Part shown: positions 14,824-23,114 of the stretch, one piece after another
Layout: each line of letters starts with the position of its first letter
Numbering within the stretch: position 1 is the stretch's first letter
NCBI GenBank assembly: GCA_010015805.1
Contig: ML978121.1
Span: 372,001 to 436,000 of the forward strand
DNA: 64,000 nucleotides
Direction of reading: 5' to 3'
DNA from: Rhizodiscina lignyota
Lineage: Eukaryota
Translations under genes and position numbers: made by a program
Notes under the pieces: model-generated
Seen by the model: only the letters and a program-made list of their open reading frames with translations
Told to the model about the DNA's origin: nothing
The model's database searches: none

Positions 14824-17394
14824 TCACTGTGTAACCGTGTCGAATGTGATTTTGTAGACACTCCTCCCCTTGTCGTCCGTCTTCACATGCTCCACGCCTC
14901 TTTCAGCAGCATCTAGATGGACGAGGGTCCTATCGTCACGCGAGGGCAAAATGATATGTAGCTCCTTCCACAGCGGTTTCCACTTCTTAATGTGTGCCCC
15001 AAAAGCGACACCCACCACTCCCTCTGCAATGCATGCGTAACGGATCGTGAATTCTGCAATGTCCGGCTCTGCAGATATTCCGTCGTCCTCATACCAAGTC
15101 GCACTGTACTCTCTGCTCGTTCTGCTCATCGGCGGGAATATCTCCACTCCTCGATAGTCGTCTGCGGGCAAGTTCGCTGGATTCTCGGGCTCTCCTGTTG
15201 AGAGAACTTGCACGTCTTTGCCGACTGGTATCGCGCCTCCACACTTCGCAATAGTGGGAATAGAGTCTTTCCATTTCGATTCAACAGTGGTCCACTGCCC
15301 GGCCTTAATGTGCTGGTATGGCGAGTTGAGGTTCAAATATCCGGGATCATCTTCGCCCTTCTTTGGCAGATATAGTCTTGTCGAATCAATGTTTTCTTCA
15401 TAGACTCCGCCAATCATGAGTGTGTCTCCGAACCAGAATTGTGTCTCGCCACTCTTCAAGCCTTCCGACCATACCTCAGGATCACTCTCGTAGCCCCAGC
15501 CCACCCATCGTTGCGGTGGCTCGGCATACAGGTGGCTTCGGAGTGCAAGGTTGTAGGTGTAAGGAATTATCTCATATCTTCTCTTAACAGCCTTCTTGAC
15601 CAGTGGTGTGATCTCCGGGTACATCCATGGTTCAATCACATCGCCCACTTTGTTGTCCTCATTGCTCGTCTTGAAGCAGTTGATCGCAAACCGGCTGGTG
15701 TGGCATGCTGTCTGTATCCACCTCAGCAAAAGCGCGGGGCTCGGTTGTGGTCCCTCGAATCCTCCAGTATCGTGACCATAACACTGCAGTAATGACATAC
15801 CGGCATTGAGCGCAAGAGCGTTGCCGCCCTTGAACGATGCCCAAGATGTTACGTTGTCGCCGCTCCAGGAAGATGCACAGTATCGCATTGTGCCAGCCGT
15901 TGCGCTACGTGTGAGAACAAAGGGTCGGCGGTTCGGATCCAGGTCCGTGAGGGCATCGTATGATGATTTGCCCATGAGCTCCGTATGCAGCGCTCGACCC
16001 CAGAGGCCGACCTTGTTGCTGTCGATACCCTGCTTGAGCAAGGCAATTTTGTTGCTCTGGATGGAGGGCTCATCCAAAGCACATTGCCAGTCATCGTTCG
16101 GGATGGTGTATTCGTTGTTGTCGTTCCAGGGCACATCTATTCCCAGCTGGGCGAGACTTTGTATACCGTCATACCACCATTTGAATCCGGCAGAGCTCGT
16201 AAAGTCGATGTGGCCTCCCTCGCCGCTTTCACCGCCGCCCGCACTCCAGAGTCGGGTCACGGCCGTTGATTTGGTCCGTGGATCGGTGAAGAATGCGTTG
16301 GCAGCAGCCAGCTTCTTGTACTCTGGATGATTGGCCAGCACGTATGGCTTTACATTTGCGATAAGCCGAATCCCGTGAGCATGGTAGGCATCAACGAAGG
16401 CCTTCGGATCGGGGAAGCGATGGTGATTCCAGGTAAACACGTTGCGTGTTTTTGGCTCAGTTTCGGCGACAGTATAGCCAGACGACATCTGAAATCCTGA
16501 ACACGGAATATCATATTCTTTCAACTTGCCTGCAAATTCCAGTAACGCTTTGTGTGCTGGCGGCTCATCCAGCATGGAGTATTTCATCCCTCCGGCGATA
16601 TAGCCAAAGGCCCAGCGTGGGACCAACCGGGGGTATCCGACCAGATCTGCGTAGGATCTGACAACATCTTGGATTGTCTTGCCGACAATGAAATATTGCT
16701 CCAGACCGCCATGATCCTGACGGTAGACTTTGTAGTGGCCCCACAATCCATCCATTTCCGAGCCAATTGAGTAGAAACCGCGGCTGTGGGAGGTCGAGAA
16801 CATGGCAACACATCCTTCAGGTGTTGCGGTGATCAGAAAGGGAATCACTTTGTATAGCGGATCAGATTTGTAGGCATTGTATCCGAAGCAGTCGGTTGAA
16901 GAAATTCTGAAAGCTCTACCAGAGAGGTCCATGGGGGCTGCCTTCTCGCCCAATCCAACGTGGAGTGCAGTTCTATTATACGCTGTATAGTGAGCAACTC
17001 CATCGCCGTCGACTGTGTATGAGCGGAACGGCAAGTCTTGATGGATTGGAGTATTCGAGCCATTGAGGGAAAGTGAGACAATTGGAGTATGGGTCCATTC
17101 AACTTGAGCAACGACATTTGCTGTCTTGAATGTCTGCTTTGGTCCTGGAACTACATTGCCATAGTCAAGAGTTGGTGCTGATTGTGGCTTTAGTTTCGAA
17201 GCACTTGGATGAGGTGGCAGTGGGTGGTCTTTGGTGGTAAAGGTCGCACGAAAGATGTTGTCTTCAATGACCTGAAAATTGAAAGTGCACTGGGAACCAT
17301 TTTCGGTGCTGCTTAATGACAGTGACCCAGAACTGAAATTTGAAGTTTTGTCATCAAGTTCCCAAGATTTCGGGACGAATTCATGCTGAGGCAT
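14824..17394 (-). CDS. Glycoside hydrolase family 31 (alpha-glucosidase-like, WNDNNE type), no signal peptide
   Basis: 856 aa, intronless. Motifs GLGEK, DPLYKVIPF, PRWAFGY, FPDPKAF, nucleophile motif PWNDNNE, RPFVLTRS, WSGDN and GHDTGGF. Confidence 0.92.
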   Translation of the reverse strand: MPQHEFVPKSWELDDKTSNFSSGSLSLSSTENGSQCTFNFQVIEDNIFRATFTTKDHPLPPHPSASKLKPQSAPTLDYGNVVPGPKQTFKTANVVAQVEWTHTPIVSLSLNGSNTPIHQDLPFRSYTVDGDGVAHYTAYNRTALHVGLGEKAAPMDLSGRAFRISSTDCFGYNAYKSDPLYKVIPFLITATPEGCVAMFSTSHSRGFYSIGSEMDGLWGHYKVYRQDHGGLEQYFIVGKTIQDVVRSYADLVGYPRLVPRWAFGYIAGGMKYSMLDEPPAHKALLEFAGKLKEYDIPCSGFQMSSGYTVAETEPKTRNVFTWNHHRFPDPKAFVDAYHAHGIRLIANVKPYVLANHPEYKKLAAANAFFTDPRTKSTAVTRLWSAGGGESGEGGHIDFTSSAGFKWWYDGIQSLAQLGIDVPWNDNNEYTIPNDDWQCALDEPSIQSNKIALLKQGIDSNKVGLWGRALHTELMGKSSYDALTDLDPNRRPFVLTRSATAGTMRYCASSWSGDNVTSWASFKGGNALALNAGMSLLQCYGHDTGGFEGPQPSPALLLRWIQTACHTSRFAINCFKTSNEDNKVGDVIEPWMYPEITPLVKKAVKRRYEIIPYTYNLALRSHLYAEPPQRWVGWGYESDPEVWSEGLKSGETQFWFGDTLMIGGVYEENIDSTRLYLPKKGEDDPGYLNLNSPYQHIKAGQWTTVESKWKDSIPTIAKCGGAIPVGKDVQVLSTGEPENPANLPADDYRGVEIFPPMSRTSREYSATWYEDDGISAEPDIAEFTIRYACIAEGVVGVAFGAHIKKWKPLWKELHIILPSRDDRTLVHLDAAERGVEHVKTDDKGRSVYKITFDTVTQ

Positions 17395-19173
17395 GATGAG
17401 CGCTCAATGAGAGAGGTTTTAAGATGATACGAGAAAGGACTGTACGCTAAAACCTGATTGAAGAGATCGACTCTGGGAAGCAGTCACGAACATGAAAGGA
17501 AGGTACAACCTCGAAACTGAGGGGTTCGAGAGTTCGGGTTGTGGCTCGAAGACTGTGGCTGACCACTCCACGCAACACGTGGCATGCGTTCGTAACGCGC
17601 CCTAGCCGTGAACTCCTCTCTTCTGCCTTTTCCTCTTGATGCAAATGCTAAAGAGTAATTATTTGTTTAACATAAGACAGGAAACAAACATTTCCAATCC
17701 GAGCTATTTGAGAGCTAGATCCCACTCCGGTCCGAACAGCCTAGGTACAATAACACGACGGCCTACCCTCCGCCTACCCCTATTTTTCATTTCCCTTTAA
17801 GACGCCTTAGATCATGGCGTTTATAACATTAGTTGTGGGCCCTGATCTATCAATTGCCATTGGATCTTTGCAACGATTTGATGGCTTGCGGCTCTTTGCT
17901 GCCCTTTACGTATCGTATATCAAATTTAGAGCTGGTTCGATATTCTCGAGGAATAGTAACTAATCCAACGAAACGGTATGCTTCCGAGGATACAATCCTC
18001 AAACCGAGACCTCACATGACAAAGTGATCCATGATTCCAATCCCCTCATTCAACAAGCAGTTCTTTCTTCATAGCATTAAAAGGCAGCCTGTAATGTTCT
18101 GCTTCAGGTTCATTTCTCCGTTGTAACATGATTGATGAGGAGAAGGTTAGACCTCACGGTCACTCCGAATGGCAGTTTTTAAATTCGACTGGAGCATACC
18201 ATGCAGCAATTGGGACTACGACTATATATTGCGTTAGCATGGATTGGATAGCAGGTTGGTTTCCATTTCTTATATAAACCTTGCTCTTCACGAGCATCAA
18301 ACCTCTACCGTCTGTTTGTCTATCATGATTTCTTTTTCTACTCTGACAAGTATTTTAAAAGCGAAGAGACGGGAAGATGTCCCATTGTATGTACACTTCT
18401 ACTTTTTGAGTACTCATTACGATACATGATAATGGCCAGAAGCGAGAGCACGAGAAGAAATGGACAGAGTTGTGATTGCAACCAGGGGCAAGAGTTTCTT
18501 GAGCCCAGTGGACAGGCCGAGGTTTGACGTCTGATATTGCTAACAGAAAGACGTTCAAGGACGCAAGGCGTTAAGCAGGCCGGTGGTGCTTAGACAGATA
18601 AGGGACAGTGGACTGACTGAGATGAGATGCGTCCTGATAAGGAATTTGGGAAGGAGGCGTAACTGGGCGTGAGACATTCCTGTGAGTTGCATCTGATTTC
18701 ATTGGCGTTTGGTCGTGGAGGCCATCCCCAGGCCAATATATACTTGAATTGGAAGCCGGGTGCCTGCAAGACAAGGTGCTTACTCTACATATGTAATTCT
18801 AGGCGGGCCTTTCAATTGTATATCAATTGTACTTCTTTCCTTGGTGCAACAATAGTGGAATAGAAGATGAGACGTCATTCCGGCGTTGGGCATCATCCCG
18901 CACCCAAGTTTGGTGGTTCTCCCTGCCGTTCGCTGGGGGCGGCTGCCCCTAGATTCTGGGTGGCAGGGGTGCGGGGCACATTAGCGCGCCAAGGCAGCAG
19001 TCTCACTGCTTAAGATGTAGCTTCTCTCTTCACTCGTCAACTTTCCTCAAACCACCTCAGTCGCGTTGCGCATCGCCCTTCGCACATTACCCACAGATTC
19101 GAACCTCAAATCATCTCTGAAGAGCTTCTCGCCCCCTCACTTCGTACCGATCAGCCTCTTGCGCATATCCAGC

Positions 19174-20665
19174 ATGGATCGCAGCCTGGACGACGTGATT
19201 TCGGAGCGACAGGTATGAGTAAAGTCTTCGAGCACTTTCGGATACTTACCTCTCACCATAGCGCGAGAATTATCGTGGAGGACGCGGCCGCCGTCAGTAC
19301 AATGGCCCACGCGATGGCATCAAAAAGGTAATTGAGCGCGGCACCATTACCATAGAACGAAAGCATTTCAATACTAATTAGTGGACTTGGAAACGCCAGG
19401 TTGATACTCCTCCCTCCTCGTTCGATCGTTGAGTTGCTCCGAAGCAGCACGCAGCAGTCGCATTCGTCCTCATCCCACATTCGAGTCGATGCGACTATCG
19501 TGTTTGACCGGCCGATGCTTGCTACTCAGATATGGTATTCCACTAGACCCTAGCTAACCTAACCTCTTCCTCTCTCCGATAATAGATCCAACAAGACTAC
19601 CAAAGGAACATTGACCAGTAAGATTAGAAAAAGCACTGCCGTTTGCTGATGCCCACTAACTTGCGCTAGCGACTGGGTCCATGACCGCTTCGACGAAGAC
19701 TCTGAGCGCAATGGTAACGACCACCGACTGTCAATATCATCGTGCCTTACTTACCAAGTGTAGATCGACGTCCTCCTCGCCCATACCGCGCACCTCGCAA
19801 CGAACGCCGTTCTCCAGAAGCTAACCTGTAAATATCGGCGTCTCCATACTGTTAGCAGTCATGCTGACACGTAGAAGGCAAGCCGGTGCCAAAATTCGAG
19901 TCGATAACTTGCACTACGATCTGACCGAAGACGATCTGCACGTATGTGACCTCACTAGCGCTCTTGGCTTCACCAGCTGATAATCTAAAGGAACTCTTCA
20001 CTCGCATTGGCCCCATCTCATCCATCCAACTCCTCTACGACCGACAAGACCGCTCCCGCGGCATCGCCTTCGTGACCTACGTCAATGTCCGCGACGCAGA
20101 AGACGCAATCGACCAATTCGACGGTGCAAACGCCAAGGGCCAGCCGATCAAATTGCAGTTAGTCGCGAAGCGCAACCCGTTCGACCACGTTGAACGCCCT
20201 GGCCGTAGCCTCTTCGATCGTATCGAGCGTCGCCGTAGCGCGAGTCCTGGTGATGAGGACAAGGGCCTGAGGATTAGAGGTGGTGGTCGAGGTGCCCGTG
20301 ATGGTGGAATGCGCCACTCGGATGTGTCTAAGCCTGCGCCAGAGCATATCGATCGCTACATTCCCGGACAGGAAGATAGGCGCCGCTCTCCACAGCGCAG
20401 GAACCGCGAAAGCTATAGGGGAAGGGGACATGGACAGAGGCGCGAGGGTGACAGGGGTGGCAGGGGAAGAAGGGATGGGGACGGTCATGCCATGGTTCAG
20501 GGCCGACCAAGAAAGACGCAGGAGGAACTGGACGCCGAGATGGACGATTACTTCGGTGGTGCAAGCGCTCCGAATGGAGGAGATGGCACGAACGAGTATC
20601 CTGCGGCCAACGGCAACGGCACTGCACCAGCACATTTGGACGGGGATATCGACATGATCGAGTGA
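19174..20665 (+). CDS. Yra1/ALY(REF)-family RRM mRNA export adaptor, multi-exon
   Basis: N-terminal box MDRSLDDVI (exon 19174-19212), an RGG exon 19262-19327, small exons giving IQQDYQRNIDHDWVHDRF, an RRM (IRVDNLHYDLTEDDL|ELF...SRGIAFVTY...FDGANAKGQPI) and C-terminal box KTQEELDAEMDDYF. Confidence 0.88.
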
Positions 20666-21148
20666 AAGCGTGGCTCCACTCAATTCGAAACACATCAACC
20701 ATACGCATTCGGCAATGCAATGTCGTGGCCCCATCACAGATGGATTATCAGACTGGGAAGCATGAACGATGGTGTGGTTTCTCTTGATGAGGGACCAATG
20801 TCAGATACAATCATGGGAATGGCGTTTCGCACTCAGGACGGTGTCACAGTACCTGGCAGGAAACGGAATCAGTGAACAAGAATGTAACAATTACAGAAAT
20901 CGAACTCATGGTATCATGCTCGTGTATAACAGTCCCAGAAATTCGCTCTTTTCGAAGCACCGTGACAGCATCTATGTCCCGACCGCGCACAAGTCAACTA
21001 TGCCAAACGCAGCGGAACGCCAGAGTCATATTCCCATACATTTGCTCTCCCATGCAGCGCCTAAGCAAACCAACCTTTTGCGCCTGTAAATGCTGTGGGT
21101 CTATCTTCAACGCCATTTCCTTCCATTTCACCAGGCGTGTCTCCGCCC

Positions 21149-22431
21149 TCAGCGATCCTTCCAAAGACCATAGCTCCCCCCAGCGTTATTCCACAACTTG
21201 ATCGTCCCGTCCTCACTCCCTGTCGCATACAACTTGCCATCCGGGCTGAACGCCACGCTCCAAATCGGCCCGTGATGTCCCTTGCCCATCTCCAGCTCCT
21301 GCTCCGTGTCGTAGTCCCACACTCGCATGTATGTGTCGCCCGCGCCGCCAGTCACGAAGCGCCGCTGGCCAGAGTGCACCGCCACTGACGCAATCTCGTA
21401 CGGCGTCTTGACCTGCTTGAGCAGCGTTGCGGGAGACGCGCCGTCGAAGAAGTACACCGATTTACCGGCCGCGACGCTCAGCGTTCCCACGCCAGGCGTG
21501 CCGATCGAAGTATTATGCGGCGTGGTGCCGTTCTGTAGATCCCCATTGTCGAGCGTCGCCGCGCCAGACGAGAGAGCAGGCAGGTCGAGGTTCAGCTCAC
21601 ACGTCCCGACTGTGCCCTCGACCACATACTCCCCAATGGGACTGCGCGTGCGCAGGTCCCACCACCGCACCTTCTTGTCGTCGGCCGCTGTGATCAGGAT
21701 GTTCAGGTCGGTGGCCCAGACGATGCTCTTGATGGTGCCTTCGTGCACGCCAGGGCCAATTTCGAAGGACGGAGGGGTGGGTTTGGCTGCTTCGGTGGAG
21801 TTTGTGGGGGAGAGGCCTGGCGAGGATGTTGCGCCGGACGATTGCGAGAGGTCGAAGATGCGCAGCTTCTTCTCCATCCCGCCTGTCGCGAGGATCTGGG
21901 GGCGCGGCTGGTTGGGGAAGGCTACGGCGCGGACGATGTGCGCGTGTGGGAGGGTGTGGAGGGCTTCGCCGGTGAAGGTATCCCAAACATGGCTATGATC
22001 CTGTTAGTATAGAGCTAGAGTTGATGAGGCCTAGAATGTGTGAGACGTACGCTGAGAAGTCGGCTGAGCCAGTCGCCGCCAATGTCGCATCTGAGGATAG
22101 ACGGGCCTGCCAGACAGCGCCCTTGTGTCCCAGAAACGTGCCTATCCAATCTCCATTGACGCCATTCCTAAGCATAGGGTTGTTGTCTATCCGGTCCATC
22201 AGCAAACGCCTCAGCATGTCCATCCACGCCAAACGCACCTTTGCATGCAGAGACCAAGTAGTATGCGTCATCGTCGACTATCGAGGAGAAGTGGATGTGC
22301 GTAACGGGACGGGAGTGGCCATGGCAGGTTAAAGGAACCCACTTTGGTGCGTCTAGAGAGTTGAAAGTCTATTAGCTTAAGATTCTCTTGAGCTGGACGG
22401 TTTGAGCGGCGCGACACTCACCTGGGGCCAT
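21149..22431 (-). CDS. STRAP/UNRIP-like WD40 protein (serine-threonine kinase receptor-associated protein)
   Basis: Spliced N-terminus [22 protein letters not shown], then [24 protein letters not shown] and [30 protein letters not shown]. Three short introns in the 5' part. Confidence 0.9.
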
Positions 22432-23114
22432 ATTGGCTAAGTGAACTTCGGTAAAGGAGAGATTCGCGATGGAGTAGTTATGGAAGGGACAGCAGAGTCA
22501 CAATGACTGAGAGACCAGAGCGCAGAATATTTGTGAGCCGTTCCTGAAGGAAGTGGGGAGTGTGGAGAGATGAAAGCGGTAAGTGGTCAAGTGGTGATTG
22601 TGGATCGGGCTTATTCAGAACATTCCAGAAGAAGGGATATCAAAGGCAAATAGAAAAGCATAAAGTCATTAGAAGATTTGCGAAGTGACGTGTGAGAGAA
22701 AGAAGTTTCAAGTGCAAACGAGCGAGGGGCAGGAGAAAGTGCAGGTGGTGGAGAACGCGCTTTGGACCCTGCATTTGCTTGGGCCCAAAAAATATAGAAG
22801 ACCCCTGAAAACGACGCTGAAGGCGAGTGACTTTTCTTCCAGCATCGTCATACGCACATTTGAAGGACAGTTTCAGCTGTGGTCGCGCCTCTTCTGGCAT
22901 CGATGCACGACCTGTTGAAGGCAGATTACAGAAATGGATAGAGCTCTTTTGCAAGGTCCACACAAATTTGACTATCGTCAATAGCAGTTTGTCGAAGCTC
23001 AATTGTCTTTTGAACCTGAACAATTACTCCTTTCACTATACGCCATAGTATTTTGTTCGCTTGTTCCGAATCATTTGGTGAGTTTCTAAGGACGGACTTC
23101 TACAAGCAGTCCTC

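Follow-up and report, generated by a model that had tools for sequence, protein, structure and literature searches.

Self-control of Yra1 through an intron of its own gene is a textbook case in budding yeast, in which the whole intron is retained and the transcript follows an unusual decay route. The intron-dependent autoregulation of YRA1 in S. cerevisiae was reportedly described by Preker and Guthrie in 2006 and by Dong et al. in 2007. Here we report on the second intron of an ALY/REF/Yra1-family gene from Rhizodiscina lignyota, which lies in a stretch of 64,000 nucleotides (nt) of contig ML978121.1 (positions 372,001 to 436,000 of the forward strand). We refer to the whole of this stretch as the window and give all coordinates in it. 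We propose that intron 2 is a conserved composite regulatory intron, in which one weak donor serves two competing 3' splice sites and the choice between them would limit the output of the gene itself, a reading to which we assign a probability of roughly 0.55.

In hemiascomycetes YRA1 carries a long, inefficiently spliced intron, the unspliced form of which is increased in Yarrowia mutants of nonsense-mediated decay (NMD) (PMC2911113), and intron-dependent autoregulation of the gene is described both for S. cerevisiae and for other hemiascomycetes (PMC2911113, PMC2864733). The window gene belongs to the same protein family and shares with these genes one unusually long intron where the others are short or few, a likeness that we draw without regard to intron position. 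In the yeast gene, however, the whole intron is retained and the branch point departs from consensus, and in S. cerevisiae the transcript decays via Edc3p and not via NMD. The window gene instead has a consensus distal branch (GCTAAC followed by CTAAC), together with a conserved internal acceptor, an AG/GT junction and a C/U-rich block. Of the hallmarks of a YRA1-type intron, the unusual length is found, at 258 nt against 49-52 nt for the gene's other introns, which bears out the fivefold difference claimed in a first-pass annotation of this DNA. The non-consensus branch is not found, with GCTAAC or GCTGAC present in 22 of the 26 non-redundant loci of relatives introduced below.

Two further systems invite comparison. 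In Cryptococcus neoformans the intron-retaining mRNA of YRA1 (CNG03240), a stop-bearing isoform of a Yra1 orthologue, is increased in a upf1 deletion (PMC5006051). In contrast to the window gene, this is plain intron retention in a basidiomycete, and the available portion of that report describes no internal splice site or conserved element. The poison exons of SR and other RNA-binding proteins resemble the window intron in having a conserved non-coding intronic segment with an in-frame stop and an expected coupling to NMD and feedback (PMC4379411). Unlike in those genes, in the relatives of the window gene it is the 3' splice site that is deeply conserved, and the 5' splice site of the would-be exon that is not. 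For the fungal SRSF5 orthologue, the same source gives intron retention only and no cassette exon, in a long intron that is little conserved among Aspergillus species (PMC4379411). We found no description of the present element in filamentous ascomycetes in the literature, in a search whose scope excluded subscription journals and supplements.

The features of intron 2 in the window are as follows.

19328..19585, + strand: intron 2, 258 nt, spliced out whole in the productive mRNA
19328..19399, + strand: mini-intron 2a, 72 nt, from the weak donor to the internal acceptor
19328-19333, + strand: donor of intron 2, GTAATT, weak
19372-19378, + strand: internal branch, TACTAAT
19397-19399, + strand: internal acceptor, CAG
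19398..19401, + strand: AG/GT junction, invariant in relatives
19400..19534, + strand: middle segment, the candidate 135-nt poison exon; conserved and non-coding in relatives
19407..19419, + strand: C/U-rich block, CTCCTCCCTCCTC
19430..19432, + strand: in-frame TGA for transcripts spliced at the internal acceptor
19535..19540, + strand: candidate internal donor, GTATTC, 17 nt 5' of the distal branch
19553..19563, + strand: distal branch region, GCTAAC at 19553-19558 and then CTAAC at 19559-19563
19583..19585, + strand: distal (productive) acceptor, TAG

Direct reading of the sequence found every splice signal that the first-pass annotation had named in its place, and its lengths of 72, 135, 51 and 258 nt were correct, as was the peptide predicted behind the internal acceptor: from 19400 the frame runs GTT GAT ACT CCT CCC TCC TCG TTC GAT CGT TGA, or VDTPPSSFDR-stop. 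The productive junction, 19327/19586, reproduces the deposited protein (P0001) exactly, and the matching junction is present in two contigs from relatives (L014 and L047). These are spliced, metatranscriptome-like transcript contigs in which the exon 2-microexon junction can be seen directly. The single public run that holds the window locus is a DNA assembly, in which contigs cover positions 17000-23000 evenly and without joints. We also observed that three branch-like motifs, CTAGAC, GCTAAC and CTAAC, follow each other at 19544-19563, so that the branch region of the productive acceptor is tripled.

To follow the intron through related fungi we used a profile of 11 aligned orthologues against metagenome contigs, which returned 80 loci. 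Both the motif RDG[IV][RK]K, at the end of exon 2, and DWVHD, in exon 4, were present in 43 sequences (42 loci and the window; 38 distinct), and the distance between the two motifs was 256-441 nt in genomic DNA, against 33-36 nt in the two spliced contigs. Most of the counts below use 26 non-redundant loci and some use the 38 distinct sequences. The intron opens in the same order in all 38: 51-105 nt closed by a YAG, a GT directly behind it, and next a pyrimidine-rich block of the CCTCC type. This element (YAG, GT, C/U-rich block) was found in 61 of the 80 loci, comprising 58 carriers of a relaxed pattern (51 distinct contexts) and three with a variant exon-4 motif. The other 19 loci are unable to show it, two being spliced contigs, one starting inside the block and 16 falling short of the upstream DNA, and the element is thus present in every locus with DNA able to show it (61/61). 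Elsewhere in these loci the same pattern matched 159 times in 489,860 bases, a background of 0.325 per kilobase (kb). Judged by their best matches to named proteins, to any of which many are less than 50% identical, the carriers lie near the Eurotiomycetes (Aspergillus, Penicillium, Chaetothyriales, Onygenales, Verrucariales), the Dothideomycetes (Baudoinia, Zymoseptoria, Patellaria, Cryomyces, Venturia) and the Lecanoromycetes (Pleopsidium, Pycnora). The long intron, whose conservation the first-pass annotation had proposed as a check, is kept in the relatives at 166-350 nt, with a next intron of 48-83 nt (26 loci). Every locus able to show them has kept the internal branch and acceptor, and use of the acceptor would bring a stop before the RRM in 38/38 distinct sequences, 6-183 nt past the junction.

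The anatomy of the intron is also shared in its details. Exon 2 ends in AAG in 26/26 loci, and its donor is weak, with a median score of 1.9 on a position weight matrix built from intron-3 donors, compared with 7.9 for the intron-3 donors themselves (38 distinct sequences). Mini-intron 2a measures 51-105 nt with a median of about 59 nt (26 loci), and under a strict CTRAY definition its branch lies 9-23 nt 5' of the AG in 27/38 sequences. GT follows the internal AG directly in all 26 loci, with T, C or G as the next base, and follows neither the distal acceptor nor the intron-3 acceptor in any of them (0/26). Behind it, CCTCCT occurs in 20 of the 26 loci, where 3.2 would be expected, at a median of 12 nt past the internal AG; the share of pyrimidines at positions +7 to +30 is 0.79 (C, 0.47), compared with 0.54 in introns 2a and 3. 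The middle segment varies in length from 105 to 295 nt (26 loci), and about 30 nt 5' of the distal acceptor lies the distal branch, which reads GCTAAC in 12 loci and GCTGAC in another 10 of the 26. The exon that follows the long intron is a microexon of 32-38 nt in all 38 distinct sequences.

Several smaller observations accompany these. A second branch-like motif, yTGAC, lies 6-10 nt 5' of the distal GCTRAC in ten loci (L002, L003, L006, L008, L024, L025, L028, L034, L038 and L063), and in many relatives the microexon is purine-rich, resembling AGAGAAGA. In L015 and L016 the exon-2 donor is GTCCGCCTCC, which resembles the GTCCGCCCTCC that stands behind the internal acceptor in L006, L025, L028 and L038; a sequence like GTCCGCCCTCC is thus able to stand at a used donor.

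We measured the conservation of each part of the intron as the mean pairwise identity within clades, for which shuffled sequences give a baseline of 0.45-0.65.

Clade A (21 pairs): mini-intron 2a 0.61; first 40 nt of middle segment 0.80; rest of middle segment 0.79; last 45 nt before distal acceptor 0.82; microexon 0.84; intron 3 0.62
Clade B (10 pairs): mini-intron 2a 0.62; first 40 nt of middle segment 0.75; rest of middle segment 0.70; last 45 nt before distal acceptor 0.83; microexon 0.82; intron 3 0.58
Clade C (3 pairs): mini-intron 2a 0.69; first 40 nt of middle segment 0.91; rest of middle segment 0.82; last 45 nt before distal acceptor 0.92; microexon 0.81; intron 3 0.66
Clade D (3 pairs): mini-intron 2a 0.57; first 40 nt of middle segment 0.78; rest of middle segment 0.64; last 45 nt before distal acceptor 0.72; microexon 0.66; intron 3 0.59
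Clade E (1 pair): mini-intron 2a 0.52; first 40 nt of middle segment 0.72; rest of middle segment 0.51; last 45 nt before distal acceptor 0.78; microexon 0.81; intron 3 0.55

Introns 2a and 3 stay near the shuffled baseline in all clades. Conservation of the middle segment is roughly that of the coding microexon in clades A-C, a pattern that clade D shows weakly, and in the single pair of clade E the rest of the segment shows no raised conservation. Mini-intron 2a looks like a real intron, with its signals and length kept and its sequence free to change, and the segment that follows has the look of non-coding DNA under constraint. From one clade to another, short motifs alone persist. We noted in addition that GT[AG] occurs at 1.20 per 100 nt in the body of the middle segment against 2.79 in the 40 nt before the distal branch (26 loci), and the lower density may reflect a depletion of stray donors.

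These features indicate that the intron and its internal acceptor form a conserved functional unit through which NMD and autoregulation could act. Our best reading is of a conserved alternative 3' splice site that would give rise to transcripts with a stop and, in some lineages, to a cassette exon. Because mini-intron 2a is conserved and normal in size and signals, the internal acceptor is probably used. The proximal site (TACTAAT with the CAG at 19397-19399) would then close a 72-nt intron and join exon 2 to GU and the CCUCCU-like segment behind it, giving a product in which translation would end at a stop 31 nt past the junction (TGA, 19430-19432), ahead of four or five further exon junctions. 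A transcript with a stop so placed is a standard NMD substrate, and such transcripts would presumably be removed by this route. They may keep the rest of the intron, or include the 135-nt poison exon where a second donor exists, as GTATTC may be in the window. The distal site (GCTAAC/CTAAC with the TAG ending at 19585) yields the sole protein-coding mRNA. We suggest that the weak donor, the C/U-rich block and the middle segment tune the ratio between the two products, the block and segment acting as a putative binding platform, and that this ratio is most plausibly under negative feedback, exerted by the protein or by its partners. We propose feedback of this kind by analogy with relatives of the gene, and use of the proximal site with subsequent decay is predicted from the arrangement of the signals.

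A number of points weigh against this proposal. The proximal-site isoform is a prediction from DNA, and a link between the protein and the C/U-rich block is conjectural. A plain two-acceptor model has no need of an invariant GT after the internal acceptor and leaves it unexplained. The in-frame stop is uninformative, being expected of any non-coding insert. The set contains no close relative of the window, so that the conservation figures concern the middle segments of relatives only. Searches with nhmmer using profiles of the five clades gave few hits across clades (best E values 4.8e-06, 0.003 and 0.01), and with the window's own middle segment they gave no cross-clade hit. Finally, we shuffled the interior of the window intron 2000 times, keeping the first 6 and last 40 bases, and counted a success when a CTRAY branch was followed by an AG and later by a GT such that the result was a pair of introns, each of 40-120 nt, plus a stop or frameshift. 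The full signal set arose in 23% of the shuffled interiors and is therefore within chance, and not significant, in this sequence taken alone. This rate accords with the low information content of splice signals in filamentous fungi, for which about one predicted intron per kb of random sequence is given (PMC4408805).

The main rival explanation, which we consider unlikely, takes the invariant GT as its starting point. Intron 2 may be removed in two steps, with mini-intron 2a leaving first and the AAG of exon 2 being joined to GUUGAU, which would recreate a donor at 19400. The remaining 186 nt would then leave as a second, abutting intron, with an exon of zero length between the two and the C/U-rich block serving as the 5'-proximal pyrimidine tract of the second intron. 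A stop-bearing transcript would result only if the second step failed, and that step could be the regulated one. The juxtaposition of AG and GT recalls the recursive splice sites and RS-exons of animals, in which a segment is subsequently included or removed (PMC6224609), and a 3' splice site directly before a GT is what recursive splicing calls for. Such a GT stands behind the internal AG in 26/26 loci and behind neither of the other two acceptors, and exon 2 always ends in AAG. The stretch from 19400 to 19585 is moreover built as an intron, with a GT, a pyrimidine tract from about 7-12 nt, a strong CTRAY branch and a YAG. This position of the tract fits Fusarium introns, whose pyrimidine tracts are mostly found at a distance of 8-40 nt from the 5' splice site (PMC5677156), and the use of more than 200 GTnnnn variants by fungal spliceosomes would accommodate an unusual donor (PMC4408805). 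Intron definition should in addition favour removal of the normal-sized mini-intron 2a, and expression of an essential gene would then be accounted for by a rescue step.

The recreated donor, however, is far from consensus: A at +3 is found in 0/38 and G at +5 in 8/38 sequences, compared with 22/38 and 35/38 for intron-3 donors, and its median score is -3.4 against 7.9. The block is rich in C (0.47), where ordinary tracts are rich in U. The animal sites recreate a strong donor within very long introns (PMC6224609), whereas here the donor is poor and the intron is 258 nt, and the literature found, as far as it was available, reports no fungal case. We regard as more doubtful still an extension of this reading in which the AG/GU and CCUCCU module works as a recursive splice site of fungi and control is exerted at its second step, through ALY/Yra1. 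ALY is a peripheral partner of the exon junction complex. After removal of mini-intron 2a, the complex on exon 2 could recruit ALY/Yra1 and block re-splicing at the weak donor, such that the 186-nt remainder with its stop would be kept and the transcript directed to decay; repression of recursive splicing by the exon junction complex is described in animals (PMC6224609). If so, the export adaptor would gauge its own abundance via splicing, across at least the Dothideomycetes, Eurotiomycetes and Lecanoromycetes.

Consecutive splicing within one intervening sequence is also known from the stwintrons of Pezizomycotina, one case of which is tied to exon skipping (PMC6616335, PMC9024468). In a stwintron the internal intron is nested and interrupts a splice signal of the outer one (for example G/.../T), whereas here the introns would abut. 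We rejected this arrangement for the window, where an unbroken GT (19400-19401) follows the internal AG and base 19329 is a T, so that no G/GT...AG/T is possible.

The first-pass annotation had proposed a different architecture, in which 19400-19534 is a 135-nt poison cassette exon between two mini-introns and is skipped in the productive mRNA. In this exact form we hold the model to be doubtful. All of its signals are present, and within clades the middle segment is conserved as an exon might be; the last 45 nt before the distal acceptor, which would then be intron, are nonetheless more conserved than an ordinary intron interior. The difficulty lies with the internal donor. GTATTC lacks a G at +5 and is a weak donor, which would make a second intron of 51 nt. 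Across the relatives, 12/38 sequences have a best internal donor that scores at or above the 10th percentile of true donors, its position differing among them, and 3/38 have no GT in range. GT[AG] is not enriched in the 40 nt before the distal branch (18/26 loci, compared with 15.7 in shuffles). In a narrower test, chosen post hoc after inspection of the data, GTA was found 14-26 nt 5' of the distal branch in 9/26 loci from several clades, including the window; in these nine loci it would give a second intron of 42-59 nt. Shuffled sequences averaged 3.7 such loci, with 20 of 2000 reaching 9, and equal windows further upstream contained 0-2. This donor is missing from whole clades, clade A among them. 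A cassette exon is thus plausible for the window gene and for roughly one lineage in three, and would not be the conserved core of the system. For the proposed exon, the acceptor, the stop and conservation of the segment within clades are found, and its downstream donor proves weak and not general; the internal branch and acceptor are conserved in orthologues and the donor is not generally so (9/26, absent from clade A). That the productive mRNA depends on exon skipping finds no support as worded, and the choice may lie between two 3' splice sites or in two-step splicing.

We think it very unlikely that the middle segment serves some other role, as an intron-hosted small RNA, a folded RNA element or an opposite-strand feature, with the internal acceptor being incidental. 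Conservation does span the whole segment, beyond the splice signals, and the minus strand opposite exon 2 and the intron (19253-19525) contains a stop-to-stop frame of 90 codons. A search of Rfam, however, gave no match in the window intron at E values up to 10, and 16 orthologous loci likewise gave none at the gathering score. Folding of the window intron was not better than that of its shuffles (z -0.24), the alignment of clade A shows no covariation (term +0.51, with double changes in 3/36 pairs), and scanning of downstream windows revealed no consistent pairing partner for the C/U-rich block. Gaps in clade A are not multiples of three, which speaks against coding, and the invariant order of branch, YAG and GT would be left unexplained. 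That we are looking at chance signals in a merely long intron, as the shuffle rate and the low information of fungal splice signals (PMC4408805) might allow, is scarcely credible given an element present in all 61 loci able to show it, in at least three classes and against its low background.

The gene in which the intron lies is arranged as follows.

19174..20665, + strand: ALY/REF/Yra1-family gene, seven coding exons, stop included in the last
19174-19212, 19262-19327, 19586-19617, 19670-19713, 19764-19827, 19878-19941 and 19991-20665, + strand: the coding exons
19262..19327, + strand: exon 2, RGG-rich, ending ...RDGIKK with AAG
19586..19617, + strand: microexon 3, 32 nt, IQQDYQRNID plus 2 nt
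19618..19669, + strand: intron 3, 52 nt, ordinary, which served as the internal control

Its introns measure 49, 258, 52, 50, 50 and 49 nt, and the seven joined exons translate without a difference into the 327 amino acids of P0001, which its source calls an RNA-binding domain-containing protein from Rhizodiscina lignyota and which was also the best database match, with 100% identity over the last exon. The last exon matches RRM_1 (E 2.6e-12, 46.9 bits, cut-off 20.7) and FoP_duplication (E 2.3e-06, 28.6 bits, cut-off 24.6), and the source names of the matched proteins include 'THO complex subunit 4'. RGG stretches surround the RRM, and the boxes MDRSLDDVI, DWVHDRF and ELDAEMDDYF align with orthologues; we take these to be the short N- and C-terminal boxes of the ALY/REF/Yra1 family. 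The domain matches and the named proteins agree with the earlier assignment of the gene to the Yra1/ALY family. The gene is thus a member of the ALY/REF/Yra1 family of mRNA export adaptors, and a role in export would follow from family membership.

At the end of intron 5 (19870-19880) we observed tandem acceptors three bases apart, TAG at 19872-19874 and AAG at 19875-19877. Of these, the second is used in the deposited protein, and use of the first would insert an Arg between EANL and QAGAK. The deposited models of orthologues also conflict with each other at the intron 2 locus (P0004, P0005, P0113, P0109). Three of them run from exon 1 directly to the microexon and leave out the RGG exon 2, and a model from Venturia inaequalis contains about 57 extra residues through read-through of the long intron. 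These conflicts are probably prediction errors to which the composite intron gave rise, and the intron would thus explain the disagreement of gene predictors at this locus.

Taken as a conserved choice between two 3' splice sites, the intron suggests that filamentous ascomycetes reach self-control of Yra1 differently from budding yeast, with a fixed internal acceptor, an invariant GU and a C/U-rich block. Candidates for a splice choice both conserved and regulated are rare in fungi, where most alternative splicing resembles noise, and this intron would be one; the AG/GU junction is possibly the first recursive splice site in this kingdom. The element consists of a few defined nucleotides that could be mutated in a tractable species, and it is kept across classes, in relatives of Aspergillus, Penicillium, Zymoseptoria and lichen fungi. 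The finding is of clear interest to the fields of both fungal splicing and mRNA export.

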